From: Escherichia coli
GTDB taxonomy: Bacteria > Pseudomonadota > Gammaproteobacteria > Enterobacterales > Enterobacteriaceae
NCBI RefSeq assembly: GCF_003334765.1
Contig: NZ_QOWT01000007.1
Strand: one strand, 5' to 3'
Length of the DNA stretch: 64,000 bases
The notes beneath the pieces were generated by a model. It saw only the letters and a program-made list of their open reading frames with translations, searched no databases and was not told where the DNA came from. Shown piece by piece: positions 54,841 through 64,000 of this stretch. Position numbers and translations under genes: made by a program. Every line of letters begins with the position of its first letter. Position 1 is the stretch's first letter.

Positions 54841-55124
54841 GTGATGGCTTCTGATAAAGATAAATTTATAGCCCCTAGTATGCGCGACCAGGTGCTTTGT
54901 TCACAACTAATGACATTGTAATAGTTCTGTAACGTAATCATTAACATGCTCAAAAACTACGCAATTCGTTGATTAATTAAGAAATCTATAGAAAAAAGAT
55001 AATAAACAGCAGCGGATGATTATTGAGGATTCAGCACGTTTTCCTTAATGTCATCTTTACCGGGAACCTAAACTAAAATTGGCGGCCGCGCATTCCCGGC
55101 GCGGGGTAATACGGAGATATCATC

Positions 55125-55334
55125 ATGGGCAAATTAGGTGAAAACGTTCCGCTTCTTATCGATAAAGCCGTAGATTTCATGGCATCAAGCCAGGCGTTCC
55201 GGGAGTATCTGAAAAAACTTCCTCCCCGTAACGCGATTCCGTCCGGAATACCCGATGAAAGCGTGCCGTTATATCTACAACGTCTGGAGTATTATCGTCG
55301 GCTTTATCGGCCGAAGCAGGTAGAGGGGCAGTAA
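55125..55334 (+). CDS. yibT: small uncharacterised protein YibT
   Basis: 69-aa [44 protein letters not shown]...; synteny between yibL and mtlR. Confidence 0.65.
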
Positions 55335-55345
55335 GCAGACGTTGC

Positions 55346-55933
55346 TTACTTTTGAAAGGCTTTTTTTAAGCTGATTTTGGAAATCAGCTCAGTCAGTGAA
55401 AGGACCATTGTTGATCGCACAGCCTGTTGATAGCGCTGAATTTGCATTGCATACAAACTGGAGTCTGCTGGTTCAAACTGTGGCGGCGGTGGTAACGCCG
55501 CCACGCAGTGCAGTTCACCAAAGGGTCCAAGGATTTCGTCGTCGGTAAAGGCGTACTCGTTGCCGTCGTGATTTAGCTCTTCACGCAATGCCATCAGCAG
55601 TTCCGCATCTTCGTATTCCTGGCGGTTAATGACGCCCAACCCGTAAATGAGTTTTAAACGCACAGAAAGATCGCCCAGCGGACCATCGCCGTCGAGTAAC
55701 GGTTCTACAGCATACTTCACCGCGTAATCGTCTTTGCGGAATACCTGAAGCACCAGAAGATTTACCGCCTCGGTCAGGAGCTCGACGGCGGTGATCAGAA
55801 AGCTTCGCACGGTTTTGCCAGCATTCAGACGCTCAAGCACACGGTTTTCAAAGGCCTGGGTTTGTTCCATTGTTGCCTGCATATCTGACAATCTGTTATT
55901 CGGGCGCAGGGTGTCCTGCGCCTGGTCCACCAT
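55346..55933 (-). CDS. mtlR: mannitol operon repressor
   Basis: 195-aa [45 protein letters not shown]... Confidence 0.9.
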   Translation of the reverse strand: MVDQAQDTLRPNNRLSDMQATMEQTQAFENRVLERLNAGKTVRSFLITAVELLTEAVNLLVLQVFRKDDYAVKYAVEPLLDGDGPLGDLSVRLKLIYGLGVINRQEYEDAELLMALREELNHDGNEYAFTDDEILGPFGELHCVAALPPPPQFEPADSSLYAMQIQRYQQAVRSTMVLSLTELISKISLKKAFQK

Positions 55934-57081
55934 TATTGCATTGCTTTATAAGCGGTTACCGCCTCGGATACAACCTCGCTGTTGGCATCAAGACCGGAAA
56001 TCTGTGCCAGCGCCGCCTGCGGACCTTTGTCAGCGATCAGTGCTGCCAGTTCCTGAGCCTGCGGATCATCTTCACTGCGGAAGTGCATTGCAGCGGCAAT
56101 ACCTTCAATCAGGTTTTTATGTGGCAGACCATATTCCAGCGTACCGAGCAGTGGCTTGATCAGACGGTCGCCAGCACTCAGTTTACGCAGTGGCTGACGG
56201 CCTACGCGCTCTACATCATCTTTCAGATACGGGTTCTCAAAACGGCCGAGAATTTTCTGGATGTACGCCGCATGCTTGTCAGCGTCAAAGCCGTAGCGCT
56301 TGATCAATACTGCACCACTTTCTTCCATCGCACCTTTTACCACCGCGCGGATTTTCTCGTCGAGAATCGCGTCACGAATGGTCTGATGACCGGCCAGTTT
56401 TCCGAGGTACGCGGTTATAGCATGACCCGTGTTCAGGGTGAAGAGTTTACGTTCGACAAATGCCATCAGGTTGTCGGTTAACTCCATGCCTGGGATGTTC
56501 GACAGTGCGCCTTTGAACTGCGTTTTATCGACAATCCATTCGCTGAAGGTTTCTACCGTCACTTCCAGCGGATCGTTAGTTGCCGAAGCCGAAGGCGGTA
56601 CGATGCGGTCAACGGCGGAATCGACAAAGCCAACGTGTTCTTCTACCCACGCTTTGGCGTCTTCCGGCAGGGCGTTCATCACATGGCCTTTCAGCTGCGT
56701 GGTACCGCGTACCATGTTTTCACAGGCGATGATGTTCAGCGGGGATTCATTACCTTGTTCTTTACGTTTCACCAGCCCTTTGGCGATTGCCGGAGCAATA
56801 CGTTCCAGCACAACCGGGCCAACGGCGGTAGTGACTAAATCAACCTGAGCAATCAGATCAACGACATCATCACCAATGCTGCTGACAGCATTGACGCCGG
56901 AAACGGTATCTACCTGCTCGGTTTCACCAACCACATGTACCTGATAGCTATGACGGGCATTCAGGGCATCAAGTACCACCTGATTGACATCGGCAAACGT
57001 CAGTTGGATACCCGCGTCTGCCAGCAGTTTACCGATAAAGCCACGACCGATATTACCTGCGCCAAAATGTAATGCTTTCAT
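55933..57081 (-). CDS. mtlD: mannitol-1-phosphate 5-dehydrogenase
   Basis: 382 aa from ATG 57081 ([24 protein letters not shown]...); the longer tool ORF reads through the REP region upstream. Confidence 0.95.
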
Positions 57082-57106
57082 AGTATTAACCTTCATCAAT
57101 GTTTTT

Positions 57107-57308
57107 ACCCGAGAGGGCTGGGGTGAGGCTTTTCCCTCACCCAAACCCTCTCCGTGAGGAGAGGGGCAGCGCCGGATGCGGCGTAAGCGCCTTATCCGGC
57201 CTACAAGAACGTGCAAATTCAACAAATTGTGATGCATCCTGTAGGCCTGATAAGCGTAGCGCATCAGGCAATTAACCCCACCTTCTCCATGTGGAGAGGG
57301 TGGGATTG
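57107..57308. repeat. BIME-type cluster: two inverted REP units (57171-57204, 57237-57270) flanked by box C-like palindromes, between mtlA and mtlD
   Basis: GCCGGATGCGGCGTAAGCGCCTTATCCGGCCTACA and inverted TGTAGGCCTGATAAGCGTAGCGCATCAGGCA; flanks gggtgaggcttttccctcacccaaaccctctccgtgaggagagggg and ccccaccttctccatgtggagagggtggg. Confidence 0.8.
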
Positions 57309-57310
57309 GA

Positions 57311-59224
57311 TTACTTACGACCTGCCAGCAGTTCCAGCACTTCATCCACGCTGGTGGTGTGTGCCAGACGCTCGATGACGGACTCATCATCCAGTGCATT
57401 GGTCAGGCTGGTGATAACCTGAATGTGCTCGTTGTTACGGGCAGCAATACCAATCACCAGACGGGCAATGTCATCTTCTTCTTCACCGAAGCGCACGCCT
57501 TCCGGGTACTGGCAGAACACGACGCCCGTTTTCAGTACGCGATCTTTCGCTTCAACCGTACCGTGTGGCACCGCGATAGACTCACCCAGATAAGTCGGGG
57601 TCAGTTTTTCACGATCCAGCATCGCCTGAACGTATTCCGGCTCAACGTAACCGCCTTTCACCAGCTGCTCGCCAGCAAAACGAATCGCTTCTTCTTTGGT
57701 TGCCGCTTTGCGACCGAGGAAGATGTTCTCCGCGCCTAGCTTGAACAGGTTAGCACTGGAATCGTCAAAGCTGTCTTTCAGGCTGTCTTTTACTTTCTCT
57801 TCGTTTGCCGTGTGGCGTTGGGCAGCAACCAGACGTTCGGTCAGGCTGGTGTACAGGCCGCTGTCGAGGAAGTTGGTCAGCGAAATATGCTGTGCCTGCG
57901 GAACCTGGCGCATAGCGCGTTCGGTCAGGTCACGGTGAGTGATGACGAGGTCCACATCTGGCGGCAGGTTGTTGATCGCGCTGTTAGTAACAGAAATCTG
58001 CGACAGACCTGCATCCTGAATTTTCTTACGCAGAACGCCTGCGCCCATCGCACTGGAACCCATACCGGCGTCACAGGCAACGATGATTTTACGTACGTGG
58101 CTCAGGTCGTTAGTCACATCGCCAGCAGACAGCGGAGATGCGCCTTTAGACTCAGCTTTCATGTCCTGCATACGACGAGTTGCTGCTTCAATATCATCTT
58201 CTTCTTTCACTTTGCTGGTTTTCAGCAAAATAGCAGAGACAACGAAGGAGACAGCCATCGCCGCACACACACCCGCGATGTTAGCGAAGTAAGCACCTTT
58301 TGGTGTCATCGCCAGTACAGCAAGGATAGAACCCGGAGATGCCGGAGAAACCAGACCACCGCCCAGGATAGTCAGCGTGAACACGCCAGTCATACCGCCG
58401 AGGATGACTGCGAGGATCAGACGCGGATTCATCAGCACATACGGGAAGTAGATTTCGTGGATACCCCCCAGGAAGTGGATGATTGCCGCACCGCCCGCAG
58501 ACTGTTTAGCGCTACCACGACCAAAGAACATGTACGCCAGCAGCACGCCCATACCTGGACCTGGGTTAGCTTCAATCAGGAAGAAGATTGATTTACCCAG
58601 TTCATGGGACTGCTGAATACCCAGCGGCGAGAAGATACCGTGGTTAATGGCGTTGTTGAGGAACAGGATTTTCGCCGGTTCAACAAAGATAGACGCCAGC
58701 GGCAGCATGTCATGGACAACCATGAAGTTAACGCCCGCAGCCAGCATTTTGGACAGGGCTTCAACAATCGGGCCAATGCCGAGGAATGCCAGAATAGCGA
58801 GGATCATCCCGATGATGCCTGCGGAGAAGTTATTCACCAGCATCTCAAAACCGGATTTGATCTTACCGTCTACCCAGCGGTCGAAGTGCTTAATGCACCA
58901 GCCGCCCAGCGGACCTGCAATCATAGAACCGAGGAACATCGGCATGTCTGCGCCGACGATAACGCCCATGGTGGTGATGGCACCGACTACGCCGCCACGT
59001 TCGCCGCCTACCAGCTTACCACCGGTATAACCGATCAGCAGCGGCAGGAGATAAGTGATCATCGGCCCGACCAGCTTCGCCAGCGTCTCGTTCGGTAACC
59101 ACCCTGTTGGAATAAATAACGCGGTGATGATACCCCACGCGATAAACGCGCCGATATTTGGCATCACCATGTTGCTGAGGAAACGACCAAAGCTTTGCAC
59201 TTTGATCTTAATATCGGATGACAT
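57311..59224 (-). CDS. mtlA: PTS mannitol-specific EIICBA component
   Basis: 637-aa [42 protein letters not shown]... Confidence 0.95.
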
Positions 59225-59367
59225 AAAAACACCCCTTCTTATGTTTGCTGTCGCGCAGGCTGGAAGCCCGAGGTTTTTTGTTAATGTGGCGGCAGAGGTA
59301 GCCGGACCTTGTAGATACTGCGAAATCTGGCACTGAATCGGTTAACTGTCCAGTCGACGGCCTTTTG

Positions 59368-59544
59368 TGTGATATCAATCACATAAATATAGGGGGTAGA
59401 GAGGTAATTGACGTGACGTTCATCACAAAACGCTTGTGTAAAAAAGCAACAAGGCGGCGATTTTCGCTAAAAATGGCATTTAAATGTGAGTAGTGTCACA
59501 TTTTTGTTTTGATGGTTTGTTGAATCTTTGTGATCTGAATCACA
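59368..59544 (-). promoter_or_regulatory. mtlA promoter region with several CRP-like sites (TGTGA-N6-TCACA)
   Basis: Sites at 59368-59383 (tgtgatatcaatcaca), 59485-59500 (tgtgagtagtgtcaca), 59529-59544 (tgtgatctgaatcaca), plus a weaker gtgacgttcatcaca at about 59411-59426, all upstream of mtlA. Confidence 0.7.
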
Positions 59545-59760
59545 AGATATTTTCTTACGGCGTTCACCTGATGTGATCTACAGCATGTTATGCCTTCGTC
59601 ATACAATCGTTATGTAACTAAGCAACTCATCACCTCTAAAAATTATTCTTTGGTGTTATGGCGAGAATCGCGAACCCGGATTATTGTCAAAATATCAGCC
59701 TGACTCCCTTCTGGCTGCCAGCCCAAAAACAACACTGATAAACGTGAATCCGAGGCAGAT

Positions 59761-60123
59761 ATGTTTCTAAACTATTTCGCGTTGGGAGTGCTGATCTTCG
59801 TCTTTCTGGTGATTTTTTATGGAATCATCGCGATACATGACATCCCTTATCTGATTGCCAAAAAGCGCAACCATCCCCATGCCGACGCTATTCATACGGC
59901 GGGCTGGGTGAGCCTGTTTACTCTGCATGTTATCTGGCCGTTTCTGTGGATCTGGGCGACGCTCTATCAACCGGAGCGTGGCTGGGGTATGCAGTCACAT
60001 GTTGCGTCGCAGGAGAAAGCGACTGACCCGGAAATCGCCGCACTTTCTGACCGAATTTCCCGGCTGGAGCATCAACTCGCCGCCGAGAAAAAGACTGACT
60101 ATTCCACGTTCCCGGAGATCTAA
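59761..60123 (+). CDS. yibI: small inner-membrane protein YibI
   Basis: 120-aa [60 protein letters not shown]... Confidence 0.8.
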
Positions 60124-60125
60124 TT

Positions 60126-61262
60126 ATGGATCTATTGATTGTTTTAACTTACGTGGCGCTGGCGTGGGCGGTCTTTAAAATCTTCCGCATTCCGGTAAAT
60201 CAGTGGACGCTGGCGACGGCGGCGCTGGGAGGCGTGTTTCTGGTGAGTGGTTTGATTTTGTTGATGAACTACAACCACCCTTACACTTTTACCGCGCAAA
60301 AGGCAGTGATAGCGATCCCTATCACGCCACAGGTGACGGGAATTGTTACTGAAGTCACTGACAAGAATAATCAGCTTATTCAAAAGGGCGAGGTGCTTTT
60401 TAAGCTCGACCCGGTTCGTTACCAGGCGCGAGTTGACAGACTTCAGGCTGACCTGATGACGGCGACGCATAATATAAAGACGCTGCGTGCGCAGCTCACT
60501 GAAGCGCAGGCCAACACCACCCAGGTTTCAGCGGAGCGCGACCGTCTGTTTAAAAATTATCAACGTTACTTGAAAGGCAGCCAGGCGGCGGTGAATCCGT
60601 TCTCGGAACGTGACATCGACGATGCGCGGCAAAATTTCCTCGCGCAGGATGCGCTGGTGAAAGGCTCGGTGGCGGAGCAGGCGCAGATCCAGAGCCAGCT
60701 CGACAGTATGGTTAACGGCGAGCAATCGCAGATTGTGAGCTTAAGAGCGCAACTTACTGAAGCAAAATATAACCTTGAGCAGACTGTCATTCGCGCGCCG
60801 AGCAATGGCTACGTTACTCAGGTACTGATCCGCCCAGGTACATACGCAGCTGCCTTGCCGCTGCGTCCGGTGATGGTCTTCATCCCCGAGCAAAAACGGC
60901 AAATTGTCGCCCAATTTCGGCAAAACTCGCTGTTACGTCTGAAACCCGGCGATGATGCGGAAGTGGTGTTTAACGCGCTACCTGGGCAGGTGTTTCACGG
61001 CAAACTGACTAGTATTTTACCTGTCGTGCCAGGCGGTTCTTATCAGGCGCAGGGGGTATTGCAATCATTAACGGTCGTGCCCGGCACGGACGGTGTGCTG
61101 GGAACCATTGAACTGGACCCTAACGATGATATCGATGCCTTACCCGACGGCATCTACGCCCAGGTGGCGGTTTACTCCGACCATTTCAGCCATGTTTCGG
61201 TGATGCGGAAAGTGCTGCTAAGAATGACCAGCTGGATGCATTATCTTTATTTGGATCATTGA
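60126..61262 (+). CDS. yibH: HlyD-family membrane-fusion (periplasmic adaptor) protein
   Basis: 378-aa ORF with N-terminal TM helix, coiled-coil segments and beta-barrel-like C-terminus; start 3 bp after the yibI stop. Confidence 0.8.
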
Positions 61263-61824
61263 GGGGGAGGGGGGAGATTATGGAACTTTGCTCCTTGTAA
61301 GGACTAATTATTTTTGCATATTACTTCATTAGCTGCGATGATTTTTCTTTAATATTCATTATGTTAATAAGTTCTGGATGAGTGTGCTCTCATTGGATTT
61401 TTTATCCGTCTTGTTCTGCCGCAGGATGAGACTATACATCGTCGAGATCGCAATGATGATATGAGTTGTTCCTCCTGCGACGGCTCTAATCAAAAAAGAG
61501 CAGGAGTGCTTTTCCATCTATTGCGATGATGGCTTTATTATCTGAAGGATGACAGTCACATTTAAAAAATATTTAATCTATAGATCACAATGTAGGGTCA
61601 TGGAATATATGTATACAACTATTTTCTTCTTCACTTTTAATTATCGTATTCATTATAAAACTAAGTTAAAAAAACTCCTGGAGAGTGAGTTATTAATATA
61701 TTTTTAAATAAAATTAAGTTATCATTCATCGATGCACTTTATAGAATCATCAATGGCCATAATAGTACTATTAACTCTCAATTTTATATTTTTATCATCA
61801 CTACAAATATTAACTGAATTTATA

Positions 61825-62160
61825 TCAATGATTTTTTTTATTCTTATCTTTTATTTTATTTACTGTTTCAATGCAATCAGCGGCAAGTTGGAGTGGATTT
61901 AGATTTTTCAGATATGGTCTTATGATCTTTCCCTTACTTAATAAATAGCATGTATAGGATTCGGAAAGTCCAGCATCTATTTTGTACCTCCTTATATTAG
62001 ATAAGGATGTGAGAAATTCCTTGTTATCATTCGCAGCCATATATGCCAGTCCGAGTTCAGCCTCTGCGGCCTTACAGGCAAAATAGCTTAGTGAACACGC
62101 TTTTCGTCCCTCTTTAGTACTGGCTGATATTAGTGCCCATAATATTGCTTTGTCTGCCAA
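61825..62160 (-). CDS. hypothetical 111-aa protein downstream of a decayed Rhs C-terminal fragment (candidate orphan immunity protein; possibly yibV)
   Basis: 111-aa ORF MADKAILWALISASTKEGRKACSLSYFACKAAEAELGLAYMAANDNKEF... in AT-rich DNA; position relative to the Rhs remnant. Confidence 0.4.
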   Translation of the reverse strand: MADKAILWALISASTKEGRKACSLSYFACKAAEAELGLAYMAANDNKEFLTSLSNIRRYKIDAGLSESYTCYLLSKGKIIRPYLKNLNPLQLAADCIETVNKIKDKNKKNH

Positions 62161-62248
62161 ATCTAACTCTCTCTGAAATTGTCTTGCAGTAACTGCACTC
62201 GCAGAAATAGAGAAAAAAATACAATTGTTAATAACCTTGCCATATTTT

Positions 62249-62866
62249 TTAGTCCGTAACTGTTAATGTGCTATCTGGCTCTGAAAATATTAACTCATTT
62301 AATTTTTGCATGTCATTAGATAAACCAGTTATACAACCCTCGGAACAGAATCGAGGTCCTAAAGACGGACCAAAAGCGTTTAAACAACTATGTATTGAAA
62401 ATCCATTGCGATTATAAGTTCCTGTATTAACTGACGGTACTAATCGTATGCCGTCAGGTTTTCTATTGCTTGCTCCCGGGTCATTAACATTCCAACTCCA
62501 TAGGCCTTGAGGTATTGGCTATCTATTTATAAATGTGTACAACGGGGATTATTTTTACATTGCATATTATTACCAGAAGCGACTGGAATACTAAGCACAT
62601 CATAAAAATTATCATCACATGGTATATCTGAAACACACGAAAGCATACCTAAAGTTATGCTGTATAAACAGGTGGCTAATCCCAAGGGGATCGATTCCAG
62701 AAATCGGGTTCAACGGATACTGATAAAAATTCCACCTACCTTCCAGCCCAATCGGAGCCTGAGTGTTATACCGCCCCTGCTGCGGTTAATGTTACCGATA
62801 ATAGTTATAGTACAGCCCTGATTCATCATCATACTACTGCTGCGGCAGTCTGATGAACTATTGCTT
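62249..62866 (-). pseudogene. decayed orphan Rhs C-terminal fragment (core-end remnant + disrupted CT domain)
   Basis: 62706-62860 is a diverged copy of the Rhs core-end DNA at 63857-64000. Minus-strand translation gives [53 protein letters not shown]... with in-frame stops and a downstream frameshift; no ORF of 60 aa or more. Confidence 0.65.
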
Positions 62867-63328
62867 TTACGGATTCTCCTTATTCTTCCTTCTATCCATT
62901 CGCTTTAGCTTTTTGAGCTCTTGAAGTTTGCTCTTTGCATCAATATTACCGTTATTTACAGCGAATTCCATCCAATAAATAGCTCTATTCAAATTATAAT
63001 ATTCTGATAATGTTGGATTTGTATCTGATAAAAAGACCCCATAATTAAACTGCGCTGTAACATTCCCCTGAGATGCTGATCTTTCCAAGAATCGCAATTG
63101 TTTGTAAATGTTATTTTTAGTAAAGCAGTAATATTGATATAGTCGAAATGATGCCTCTGAATCACCATGTTGTGATTTATACTTCAGTTTCATCAACTTT
63201 TCTTCACTTAAATCATAGGTCATTGCTGTAGACCCCATCATACTTTCGTTTTGTTTTATTTTCACATCAGCACCATGCAATTGACAAATAAAAGAGAAAT
63301 AAAAAAATAGTAACAAGCATGCTTTCAT
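62867..63328 (-). CDS. yibG: Sel1-like repeat protein with N-terminal signal/TM segment; candidate immunity protein for the upstream Rhs C-terminal domain
   Basis: 153-aa ORF MKACLLLFFYFSFICQLHGADVKIKQNE...SASQGNVTAQFNYGVFLSD (Sel1-like motif); start 12 bp after the Rhs-CT stop. Confidence 0.6.
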   Translation of the reverse strand: MKACLLLFFYFSFICQLHGADVKIKQNESMMGSTAMTYDLSEEKLMKLKYKSQHGDSEASFRLYQYYCFTKNNIYKQLRFLERSASQGNVTAQFNYGVFLSDTNPTLSEYYNLNRAIYWMEFAVNNGNIDAKSKLQELKKLKRMDRRKNKENP

Positions 63329-63339
63329 ACATCTACAAC

Positions 63340-64000
63340 CTATCTTATATCACTGGGTTTTTCTGGCGTACCTTGCATATTAGAAATGGGGTGCCCAGAT
63401 GGCCCATATGTTATCCAATTACCAAGGTCTTTTGTTGTTATAGCCATTAGATCCTTATTTGAATTAAGGTTCGTTGGTGCTGTTAGCACTGTATCCATTT
63501 TTAACTTACCATTAGTTCCTCGCCCCCACCACGTCCATAGCGTGTCAGGTCCTATTACATTTGTATGTAACTCTTTAGCTAATTGGCTAGCAAATGAATT
63601 TTGTCCTTTACCTGTATTACAAGAAAATAACCAAACTGTCATCCCATCTTTATAATTCCCATCAAATTTAATTAGATATGCTAGATCTTTAGCTGTCATG
63701 ATACTGCGCGTTGCGGATTCAATAGATGTGGGGGTACCATGCCCCCCGATTGTGAAAACGCCTGGGATATTAATCTCATCAGCTACAGAATGGATAAGAT
63801 CACTTTCGGGGTATAAATTTATATCAACCAAACCTTGCGGATCTACATTTATGACCGGATTCAACGGATACTGATAAAAATTCCATCCCCCCTTCAGCCC
63901 AATCGGATCCTGAGTGATATACCGCCCCTGCAGCGGGTCATAATAGCGGTGGCGGTTGTAATACAGGCCGGACTCCTCATCATACTGCTGCCCCGGCAGG
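63340..64000 (-). CDS. Rhs-family protein, 3' portion (core-end motifs + variable C-terminal domain of unknown function); 5' end lies beyond the window
   Basis: Minus-strand frame is open to the window edge and reads ...[57 protein letters not shown] (PxxxxDPxGL demarcation at 63829-63858), then a 162-aa C-terminal domain ending at 63340. The ORF-track start at 63864 is a TTG artefact. Confidence 0.75.

Follow-up and report, generated by a model that had tools for sequence, protein, structure and literature searches.

To our knowledge, the periplasmic adaptor of each tripartite efflux or secretion system characterised so far works with an energised transporter in the inner membrane, and the two are normally encoded by adjacent genes; we know of no characterised Escherichia coli adaptor that is encoded away from its pump. 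An adaptor may also work in trans with a second pump, as AcrA does with AcrD, and some E. coli transporters have no assigned adaptor. Docking of adaptors to TolC-type channels proceeds through an R-x3-L-x6-S motif at the tip of the α-helical hairpin, as described for AcrA and MacA. The solved system most relevant to the locus analysed here is EmrAB–TolC of E. coli. Its adaptor EmrA carries a single transmembrane helix at the N terminus, ends in a helix packed on the base of the hairpin and docks TolC tip to tip (PMC13139468).

The locus was analysed within a stretch of 64,000 nucleotides of E. coli DNA (the window) and corresponds to E. coli yibI–yibH (identity to RefSeq records of up to 100%). 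Both open reading frames given by the sequence-only reading were recovered from the window ORF list on the plus strand, at 59761–60123 (120 aa) and 60126–61262 (378 aa). The features referred to below are as follows:

59577..59607, plus strand: promoter-like element TCTACA-19 nt-TACAAT, directed toward yibI, with the ATG approximately 150 nt downstream.
59752..59755, plus strand: Shine–Dalgarno-like GAGG, with the yibI ATG 5 nt later (read from the sequence).
59761..60123, plus strand: yibI coding sequence, 120-aa DUF3302 inner-membrane protein (ORF, Pfam PF11742, RefSeq name, dN/dS).
59764..59838, plus strand: YibI helix 1, residues 2–26, predicted transmembrane (AlphaFold2 pLDDT 94–97; hydrophobic).
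59839..59880, plus strand: conserved basic loop of YibI, residues 27–40, 14 letters (conservation in 31 sequences).
59881..59964, plus strand: YibI helix 2, residues 41–68, with the WPFLWIWA motif and, in mid-membrane, a near-invariant His56 (model, conservation).
60028..60099, plus strand: C-terminal amphipathic helix of YibI, residues 90–113, after a variable linker (AlphaFold2 pLDDT 89–95).
60114..60117, plus strand: Shine–Dalgarno sequence GGAG of yibH within the 3′ end of yibI, with the yibH ATG 8 nt later (sequence).
60126..61262, plus strand: yibH coding sequence, 378-aa EmrA-like periplasmic adaptor or membrane fusion protein (ORF, Pfam, NCBIfam, AlphaFold2, Foldseek, dN/dS).
60129..60275, plus strand: N-terminal two-helix membrane hairpin of YibH, residues 2–19 and 26–50 (model, conservation).
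60414..60779, plus strand: α-helical hairpin of YibH, helices 97–152 and 161–218 (model).
61188..61238, plus strand: C-terminal helix of YibH, residues 355–371, 17 letters (model, conservation).

The promoter-like hexamer pair had one exact match in the window and none in 100 shuffles. A genomic-SELEX catalogue of constitutive σ70 promoters, in which yibIH is treated as a single operon, records an identical pair in the spacer between yibI and mtlA (PMC3946193). A published hexamer pair TATACA-18-TATAAT was not found in the window, and an Rfam scan of positions 55000–64000 found no RNA family. The gene mtlA lies upstream of yibI and is divergent. The yibI stop codon (TAA, 60121–60123) is followed by the yibH ATG at 60126, so that the spacer is 2 nt; the tight coupling previously proposed was retained, and the distance of 3 bp given for it was corrected. 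Downstream of yibH (61263–64000) the sole open reading frames are low-GC and on the minus strand, labelled in RefSeq as Rhs remnants, an Imm57 pseudogene and yibG, in agreement with the earlier statement that no transporter gene follows yibH.

YibH was assigned to the adaptors by profile and by structure. Pfam matches were obtained with CusB_dom_1, HlyD_D23 and Biotin_lipoyl_2, and the general model TIGR01730 was matched with 99.9 bits (cutoff 94.9). The AlphaFold2 model (pLDDT 84.7) contains transmembrane helices, lipoyl and β-barrel strands and a 56-residue helical hairpin; the lipoyl domain, β-barrel and α-helical hairpin by which the adaptor superfamily is recognised are thus all present. 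In a Foldseek search, all of the best 50 matches listed were adaptors or annotated efflux proteins. The class of HlyD-type adaptor with coiled coils and β-barrel, as first proposed, was thereby confirmed. The best solved match in both sequence and structure was EmrA (PDB 8zal/8zar; phmmer E 1.7e-11; Foldseek E 6e-21, TM 0.62–0.68; approximately 20% identity), and residues 54–285 of YibH align nearly gap-free to EmrA 52–279, with hairpins of equal length. Every score against the named NCBIfam subfamilies (EmrA/EmrK, MdtN, AaeA, MacA, type I HlyD) lay below the curated cutoff (bits/cutoff: TIGR00998 113.5/390.8, MdtN 110.9/376, AaeA 75.1/400, EmrA 57.1/563, type_I_hlyD 54.5/208.65, MacA 34.6/342).

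Conservation in the YibH family is concentrated at its two ends. Instead of the one transmembrane helix originally described, the N terminus has two hydrophobic helices (2–19 and 26–50) joined by a short basic loop (an 11-letter segment), with an MNYNHPY motif at the periplasmic end; this two-helix inner-membrane anchor with a conserved loop was present in every family member examined. Residues M1, Y9, F17, P23, W27, G36, Y49, H51 and P52 were invariant among 40 sequences with overall identity down to 32%, and conservation was 0.67–0.81 in the N-terminal hairpin versus 0.38–0.46 in the coiled coil. The highest conservation of any block in the family falls in the C-terminal helix (0.86 over residues 361–370; R361, L364, L365, R366 and W370 invariant). 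Taking both proteins together, the best-conserved parts are residues 1–50 and 341–378 of YibH and 21–70 of YibI, and the coiled coil is the least conserved. Judged from these alignments, the pattern in the membrane parts is the opposite of that for a simple lipid anchor. The α-helical hairpin, approximately 84 Å long in the model if straight, is the least conserved region of YibH, and is approximately 60 residues shorter in family members of 317–335 aa. E. coli YibH keeps only the arginine (R147) of the R-x3-L-x6-S tip motif; the strict motif was found in 1 of 91 long forms and, at the same aligned position, in 8 of 14 short forms (shuffled expectation at any position: 6.6 in 105 sequences).

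YibI matches DUF3302 (PF11742; E 3.3e-41) over residues 3–78, which cover positions 1–76 of the 77 in the model; the family comprises 819 clusters at 50% identity. The AlphaFold2 model shows two long helices (2–26 and 41–68) and a C-terminal helix (90–113), as fits a 120-aa two-helix membrane protein of the kind previously described. The loop 27–40 belongs to a family motif of 20 letters and is predicted by the positive-inside rule to be cytoplasmic; P29, A33 and P39 are invariant and R36 and H38 at least 90% conserved in 31 diverse sequences. In the same set, S51, W59, P60 and W65 of helix 2, the best-conserved block of the family (0.85), are invariant, and H56 and W63 are at least 90% conserved. 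The C-terminal helix, predicted to be periplasmic, varies in sequence, yet a helix of the L..R...LE type is retained across DUF3302. Whether the partner adaptor had a long or a short hairpin was not reflected in the tail length of YibI. Comparison of the DUF3302 profile with PDB sequences gave only chance-level matches to unrelated membrane proteins. An origin of the pair in anti-phage defence or in phages was considered and rejected: YibI matched no PADLOC or PHROGs model, and YibH gave only weak coiled-coil or adaptor-like matches there.

The association of the two genes was surveyed with 172 DUF3302 genes in 165 loci from Gamma- and Alphaproteobacteria, plasmids and metagenomes; in the gene maps, HMM matches took priority over longer overlapping ORFs. 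A same-strand YibH-family gene followed in 158 of the 172, mostly at −4 to +5 nt. Six genes lay at contig ends and could not be evaluated, and in eight further evaluable cases the adaptor was present and masked by ORF-start overlap or contig fragmentation, so that a YibH-type adaptor directly follows DUF3302 in 166 of 166 evaluable cases. Among the 166 evaluable loci no recurrent RND, ABC, MFS (MFS-DHA2) or FUSC pump was found beside the pair. The surroundings change. In Enterobacteriaceae the pair is flanked by mtlA on one side and yibF–selAB on the other, and in E. coli an inserted Rhs element separates yibH from yibF; in Serratia, Yersinia, Pantoea and Buttiauxella the pair is kept and the neighbours differ. 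It also occurs in Vibrio, Psychromonas, Colwelliaceae, Alcanivorax, Pseudoalteromonas and Phyllobacterium, in a 2.5-Mb Pseudomonadota MAG, on a planctomycete-like contig and on a conjugative IncF plasmid. All named hosts are diderm; the metagenomic loci have no assigned taxon. Within E. coli, yibI–yibH was present in 5407 of 5426 complete genomes, with intact copies in 99.6%, and dN/dS was 0.009–0.04 for yibH and 0.04–0.13 for yibI (the latter against other Escherichia and Citrobacter). The non-redundant YibI–YibH pairs number approximately 45–60, and their membrane columns are nearly invariant.

Most loci have no outer-membrane factor (OMF) gene nearby. TolC-family (NodT-family OMF) genes adjoin the pair in at least three distant lineages, in which the adaptors are 40–46% identical. 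The gene order is CPA1 antiporter, DUF3302, adaptor, OMF in locus L095 and DUF3302, adaptor, OMF, SulP in L162; in L089 and L079 the OMF gene lies immediately upstream of the pair and is divergent. No classical pump was found in these four OMF-linked clusters. SulP and CPA1 genes each occurred three times within two genes of the pair (adaptors 32–47% identical), and K-channel-like and CaCA genes also recur near it. An RND-type adaptor gene follows the pair in L147 and lies divergently upstream of it in L098. Genes for PqiB, YahO, PBP4, an MltF-like protein and ion transporters or channels are also among the neighbours.

A paralogous pair, yiaW–yiaV, lies outside the window at a distance of 17 kb from yibIH. 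Identity is 77% between YiaV and YibH (378 aa, no gaps) and 75% between YiaW and YibI; the architecture is the same and this pair, too, is without a pump and uncharacterised. It was found in 3801 of the 5426 E. coli genomes, versus 5407 for yibIH. Its neighbours are yiaU (LysR regulator) and yiaT (MipA/OmpV family). An H-NS site has been reported at the yiaW–yiaV promoter (PMC3946193), and YiaV has the TCDB entry 8.A.1.1.4 (PMC10971958). A full-text literature search on yibH, yiaV, yibI, yiaW, YiaU and DUF3302 returned incidental mentions and no functional study, and no paper naming yibH and yiaV together was found; the y-ome continues to count these genes among the uncharacterised (PMC11551758). 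The incidental mentions include a 1.5-fold induction in biofilm and a Vibrio GWAS hit.

The explanation that we tentatively prefer, while placing it somewhat short of even probability, is that yibI–yibH is a complete, selectively maintained two-gene module in which YibI is the cognate inner-membrane partner of YibH in a TolC-linked complex. It is preferred because pairing is strict while the surroundings change, no pump recurs, selection is strong and the membrane parts are conserved, and because of the EmrA-like fold and hairpin length, the OMF linkage in at least three lineages and the tip motif in 8 of 14 short forms. Both proteins would be made from one message with coupled translation, and YibH would be held by its unusual, highly conserved two-helix hairpin. 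The membrane helices of YibI and YibH most likely assemble into a hetero-oligomer; if EmrA and MacA are a guide, six YibH subunits may form a periplasmic tube ringed by YibI, which would take the position held by the transporter in classical systems, and the YibH hairpin would join a TolC-family outer-membrane channel. A further step, which we regard as possible and rather doubtful, is that YibI, YibH and TolC or another OMF form a minimal system with DUF3302 as its inner-membrane component. The adaptor tube would then be seated on a ring of YibI and YibH hairpins, with no RND, ABC, MFS or FUSC transporter, and the system would represent a new class of trans-envelope conduits, gated or proton-coupled. 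A link to ion homeostasis is conceivable, given the recurrence of SulP, CPA1, K-channel-like and CaCA genes near the pair. Several points count against YibI as the partner. It is a 120-aa two-helix protein without a cytoplasmic domain, an evident energy source or likeness to known transporters. The sole arginine left of the tip motif in E. coli YibH is a second point, and length variation of approximately 60 residues is odd for a hairpin bridging one fixed periplasmic span. In several distant loci SulP or CPA1 could be the true inner-membrane partner. In E. coli, finally, yibH has served as a neutral site for integration, and no phenotype was noted (PMC5852967).

The partner role of the DUF3302 protein, which the sequence-only reading did not consider, is slightly favoured over its closest competitor. 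This competitor, the second alternative of that reading, is a realistic possibility that nevertheless falls on the less probable side, according to which YibH, with YibI as a small accessory like AaeX or AcrZ, serves a classical transporter encoded elsewhere and links it to TolC. The full EmrA-like architecture and EmrA-long hairpin of YibH are suited to such a role, for which AcrA with AcrD is a precedent and the E. coli transporters lacking an assigned adaptor are candidates. The SulP and CPA1 genes near the pair and the RND-type adaptor genes of L147 and L098 point in the same direction; SulP and CPA1 are, however, not known to us as partners in tripartite systems. In the 166 evaluable loci no conserved pump family was found next to the pair, although characterised E. 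coli adaptors are, as far as we know, encoded beside their pumps. Even with no classical pump, the DUF3302–adaptor–OMF operons of L095 and L162 look complete, and the extreme conservation of the membrane helices in both proteins exceeds what an anchor or an accessory would need.

An improbable alternative is that YibI–YibH serves the envelope as a scaffold, sensor or regulator facing the periplasm, reusing the adaptor fold without a trans-envelope duct and acting, for example, on ion transporters, envelope stress or cell-wall enzymes. The scarcity of nearby OMF genes in most loci is consistent with it, as are the weak conservation and variable length of the hairpin and the genes for PqiB, YahO, PBP4, an MltF-like protein and ion transporters or channels in the neighbourhood. 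Deletion of yibH in Klebsiella pneumoniae reduced the plaque formation of evolved phages (PMC11796411), which suggests an envelope effect. These observations are set against OMF genes linked in at least three independent lineages, the tip motif in the short forms, the EmrA-long hairpin of E. coli YibH and the diderm nature of all named hosts.

The proposal of the sequence-only reading that the pair is a remnant efflux module (an aaeXAB-like or emrAB-like operon minus its pump, leaving two drifting genes) could appeal to the lack of a pump downstream in the window and to the Rhs insertion, and is refuted by near-universal intact presence in E. coli, purifying selection (dN/dS 0.009–0.13), the intact paralogue yiaW–yiaV, a pump-less arrangement in all relatives examined that is ancestral to the whole family across Proteobacteria, and Enterobacteriaceae without Rhs, in which yibF–selAB directly follows the pair with no pump.

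Here, then, is an adaptor subfamily tied to a two-helix protein of 100–140 aa instead of to a transporter; it is near-universal and duplicated in E. coli, spread over Proteobacteria and plasmids and linked in some lineages to a TolC-family gene. If YibI is a true membrane partner, the parts list of trans-envelope systems is incomplete and TolC has uncounted clients; if a pump acts in trans, YibH is the missing adaptor of an orphan transporter.

Among known systems, the layout of yibI–yibH (small two-helix protein, a few nucleotides, adaptor) is that of AaeX–AaeA–AaeB (p-hydroxybenzoate efflux; PET/FUSC type) and FusBCDE. The resemblance to aaeX–aaeA noted earlier stands for gene order and fails for homology. 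Between YibI and E. coli AaeX (DUF1656) no homology was detected by hhalign (probability 0.1%), and YibI was rejected as an AaeX homologue; YibH scored 75.1 bits with the AaeA model, for which the cutoff is 400. AaeA and YibH have a common lipoyl and barrel core (25% identity, E 2e-16), but AaeA is anchored by one helix only and its hairpin is short, and the AaeB pump gene directly follows aaeA, with nothing comparable after yibH or its examined relatives. AcrZ-type accessory proteins are small membrane proteins tied to an efflux assembly, as YibI might be. AcrZ, however, binds the pump AcrB and is encoded elsewhere, whereas the YibI gene is always immediately upstream of the adaptor; YibI is also far more conserved, with two helices and a periplasmic helix. 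MdtN (MdtNOP), the second-best NCBIfam match of YibH (110.9 bits, residues 38–298), is likewise an EmrA-like adaptor of a poorly characterised system, but is encoded with its inner-membrane and OMF partners. EmrA remains the closest of the solved proteins: it and YibH both run from membrane anchor through lipoyl domain, long hairpin and β-barrel to a C-terminal helix, without a membrane-proximal domain. They differ in the anchor, which is one helix behind a cytoplasmic tail in EmrA and a conserved two-helix membrane hairpin in YibH, and in the partner gene, which encodes an EmrB-type MFS pump for emrA and a DUF3302 protein for yibH.

The pair had been read from sequence as a gene for a small membrane protein followed, on the same strand, by one for an HlyD-type adaptor, and both open reading frames are present in the window:

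59761-60123, + strand, yibI, 120 aa
60126-61262, + strand, yibH, 378 aa

Between the yibI stop codon (TAA, 60121-60123) and the yibH ATG (60126) there are 2 nt, not the 3 bp given at first, and a GGAG lies inside yibI, 8 nt before that ATG. Of 5426 complete E. coli genomes, 5407 carry a match to the stretch, and in 5382 the match spans 80% or more of the query. The matches are always chromosomal, and the two products are named 'DUF3302 domain-containing protein' and 'HlyD family secretion protein' there. Upstream of yibI, mtlA is divergent. The reported lack of a downstream pump gene was borne out: 3' of yibH the window holds only low-GC (27-44%) minus-strand ORFs, labelled in RefSeq as Rhs remnants, a frameshifted Imm57 gene and yibG. 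GC content falls from approximately 52% to 27-44% immediately past yibH (61300-64000), where the minus-strand ORFs are Rhs-associated orphan toxin/immunity remnants and yibG. Because yibF-selAB directly follows yibH in other Enterobacteriaceae, this Rhs element between yibH and yibF is an insertion in E. coli.

A promoter-like TCTACA-19-TACAAT, oriented toward yibI, was noted at 59577-59607. Its hexamers stand in the column beside mtlA in a published table that assigns constitutive sigma-70 promoters to the operons yibIH and yiaWV (PMC3946193); the pair printed beside yibIH (TATACA-18-TATAAT) was not found in the window. The columns for mtlA and yibIH may have been swapped, or the strains may differ. 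The mtlD-mtlA spacer (57110-57310) carries a REP/BIME-like palindromic repeat cluster (GCCGGATGCGGCG...CTTATCCGGCCTACA and an inverted copy), which makes the mtlD ORF look longer than it is, at 488 aa, when ORFs are listed mechanically.

The DUF3302 family is small (819 clusters at 50% identity). Loci (L numbers) were gathered by scanning species-representative genomes, by a metagenome scan that took distant members as seeds, by looking up distant representatives exactly, and from plasmid records. A YibH-family gene came next on the same strand in 158 of 172 DUF3302 genes, mostly with spacers of -4 to +5 nt; six genes were located at contig ends, and a YibH-family gene was present on inspection in all eight apparent exceptions. 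The pair is flanked by mtlA and yibF-selAB in Enterobacteriaceae and by other genes in Serratia, Yersinia, Pantoea and Buttiauxella; its flanks are unrelated in Alcanivorax, Vibrio, Psychromonas, Colwelliaceae, Pseudoalteromonas, Phyllobacterium, a small-genome Pseudomonadota MAG, a planctomycete-like contig and a conjugative IncF plasmid of Enterobacter kobei. No recurrent RND, ABC, MFS-DHA2 or FUSC pump was found beside the pair among the collected loci, and its multi-helix neighbours were mutually unrelated. Plasmids and secondary replicons, among them the conjugative IncFIB/IncFII plasmid of E. kobei (L165:7001-8391), carry the unit as well, again without a pump gene; plasmid or chromid records numbered 30 for Pantoea and 16 for Rhizobium. 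NodT-family OMF genes, scoring over the TIGR01845 cutoff, adjoin the pair in four distant metagenomic loci:

L162:2582-7234, DUF3302, adaptor, OMF, SulP, PPK2
L095:751-3606, (CPA1 antiporter,) DUF3302, adaptor, OMF, then non-transporter genes
L089:6458-9364, divergent OMF directly upstream of the pair
L079:3-2390, divergent OMF directly upstream of the pair

The adaptors of the four OMF-linked loci share 40-46% identity between groups, and the linkage therefore occurs in at least three lineages; no classical pump was found in these clusters. Secondary ion transporters or channels also turned up repeatedly, no more than about two genes away from the pair, in lineages with adaptors only 32-47% identical:

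SulP: L080:8440-10221, L162:5534-7234, L098:3754-4521
CPA1: L095:25-732, L079:2449-3324, L127:1854-3134
K-channel-like: L075:8002-8389, L105:2233-2898
CaCA: L143:2127-3116
Amt: L140:6658-7917

By a rough estimate assuming about three such genes per 4000-gene genome, approximately 0.15 occurrences each of SulP and CPA1 are expected by chance, against three seen of each.

Pfam assigns YibI to DUF3302 (E 3e-41); no model in NCBIfam matched it. Its AlphaFold2 model (pLDDT 87) contains helices 2-26, 28-35 and 41-68, followed by a linker of low confidence and by helix 90-113. Across 31 diverse relatives the tail is variable and the conserved core comprises helix 1, a basic loop, and helix 2, which carries WPFLWIWA and a His56 that is nearly invariant, followed by YRPxRGWG. 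The positive-inside rule would place the KKR loop in the cytoplasm and both termini in the periplasm. Candidate protonatable residues, recorded as an observation only, are YibI His56 and His25/Asp26, and YibH Asp2 and Asn48-His51.

YibH contains Pfam adaptor domains. In NCBIfam the one cutoff that it passes is that of TIGR01730, a generic adaptor model (99.9 versus 94.9 bits); its scores against EmrA/EmrK, MdtN, AaeA, MacA and type I HlyD lie far under the respective thresholds. An N-terminal membrane anchor had been correctly recognised, as a single helix; two hydrophobic helices (2-19 and 26-50) are modelled (pLDDT 84.7), together with a hairpin (97-152 and 161-218), lipoyl and barrel strands, and a C-terminal helix (355-371). 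Among 40 adaptors, down to 32% identity, the best-conserved segments are the N-terminal membrane hairpin, where M1, Y9, F17, P23, W27, G36, Y49, H51 and P52 never vary (motif MNYNHPY), and the C-terminal helix, where the same holds for R361, L364, L365, R366 and W370, and the coiled coil is least conserved, with some 60 residues absent in the 317-335-aa size class. In ordinary adaptors the anchor is dispensable and variable; the membrane part of YibH looks functional, as does that of YibI.

Two adaptor size classes (375-394 and 317-335 aa) were distinguished in columns 117-200 of the adaptor-family alignment (YibH residues ~111-200). The hairpin of the short class is about 60 residues shorter and frequently bears R-x3-L-x6-S, the TolC-docking motif of AcrA and MacA, which occurs at the same tip position in 8 of 14 short-hairpin adaptors. 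The enterobacterial long class does not carry the canonical motif, E. coli YibH retaining the Arg alone.

From the conserved membrane parts we infer a specific YibI-YibH membrane complex. The likeliest reading, given a little under an even chance, is that YibH has YibI as its cognate partner in the inner membrane: they would assemble as a hetero-oligomeric membrane complex, above which an EmrA-like hexameric tube would contact TolC or another OMF. Its weak point is that no energy-coupling element is evident. Recruitment of a classical pump in trans, which the sequence-only reading had also considered, is possible and somewhat unlikely. An envelope role independent of any OMF is improbable. A remnant efflux module, also proposed from sequence, can be excluded, with hardly any probability left to it, by the low dN/dS of yibH (0.009-0.04) and yibI (0.04-0.13) against other Escherichia and Citrobacter (unsaturated dS for yibH) and by an intact, pump-less paralogous pair:

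L001:37678-39143 (E. coli TG1), yiaW (DUF3302) and yiaV (HlyD family, 378 aa), ~17 kb past yibH and outside the window

YiaV and YibH are 77% identical across 378 aa without gaps, and YiaW and YibI 75%. The paralogous pair, neighboured by yiaU (LysR) and yiaT (MipA/OmpV) and likewise by no pump gene in E. coli, was found in 3801 of 5426 genomes, versus 5407 for yibIH. Rare disrupted E. coli alleles were noted in NZ_CP042350.1, NZ_CP033250.1 and NZ_CM173849.1: one has IS421 inside yibI, NZ_CM173849.1 has IS1 under the yiaWV match, and NZ_CP033250.1 matches only the first 451 query nt, most of yibI and all of yibH being missing. Outside these records, the adaptor ORF at locus L123 is missing its usual N-terminal part, its HMM match starting at position 35. 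These may serve as natural knock-outs for phenotype comparison.

Full-text literature searches returned no functional study of yibH, yibI, yiaV or yiaW and no paper naming both paralogues. yibH serves as a neutral integration site (PMC5852967), its deletion in K. pneumoniae made evolved phages form plaques less well (PMC11796411), YiaV is listed as uncharacterised TCDB 8.A.1.1.4 (PMC10971958), and yibH and yibI are still included in the y-ome (PMC11551758). A review of TolC names eight TolC-dependent pumps, and YibH and YiaV are absent from its text (PMC11762307). Both genes, their annotation and the adaptor fold were already known. What is new is that the DUF3302-adaptor pair, with no pump gene, forms an ancient and autonomous module under strong selection, that its adaptor has a distinctive, conserved predicted membrane hairpin, that the pair is sometimes operonic with an OMF gene, and that decay can be dismissed.

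YibI matched no defence or phage family, and YibH gave weak hits of coiled-coil or adaptor type alone. The likeness to aaeX-aaeA holds for gene position and fails for homology, AaeX and YibI being unrelated by profile comparison. AaeA is 25% identical to YibH, its residue 36 aligning with YibH residue 52, which leaves space for one anchor helix only, and aaeB lies 3' of aaeA. The nearest structural relative of YibH, the best of the solved proteins by sequence and fold, is E. coli EmrA in EmrAB-TolC (phmmer E 1.7e-11; Foldseek E 6e-21, TM 0.62-0.68), with a nearly gap-free alignment of the hairpins. In that complex the EmrA hairpin meets TolC tip to tip; a single TM helix forms the N-terminal anchor of EmrA, and its C-terminal helix packs against the hairpin base (PMC13139468). 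A beta-barrel loop of YibH (residues 298-320, window 61017-61085; conserved G-Q-x-Q-x-x-G; pLDDT <50 at 310-319) appears, by sequence order, to correspond to the loop with which EmrA grips EmrB; it is polar, whereas that of EmrA is hydrophobic. Unlike YibH, EmrA has no two-helix N-terminal membrane hairpin and is encoded with its pump, EmrB.
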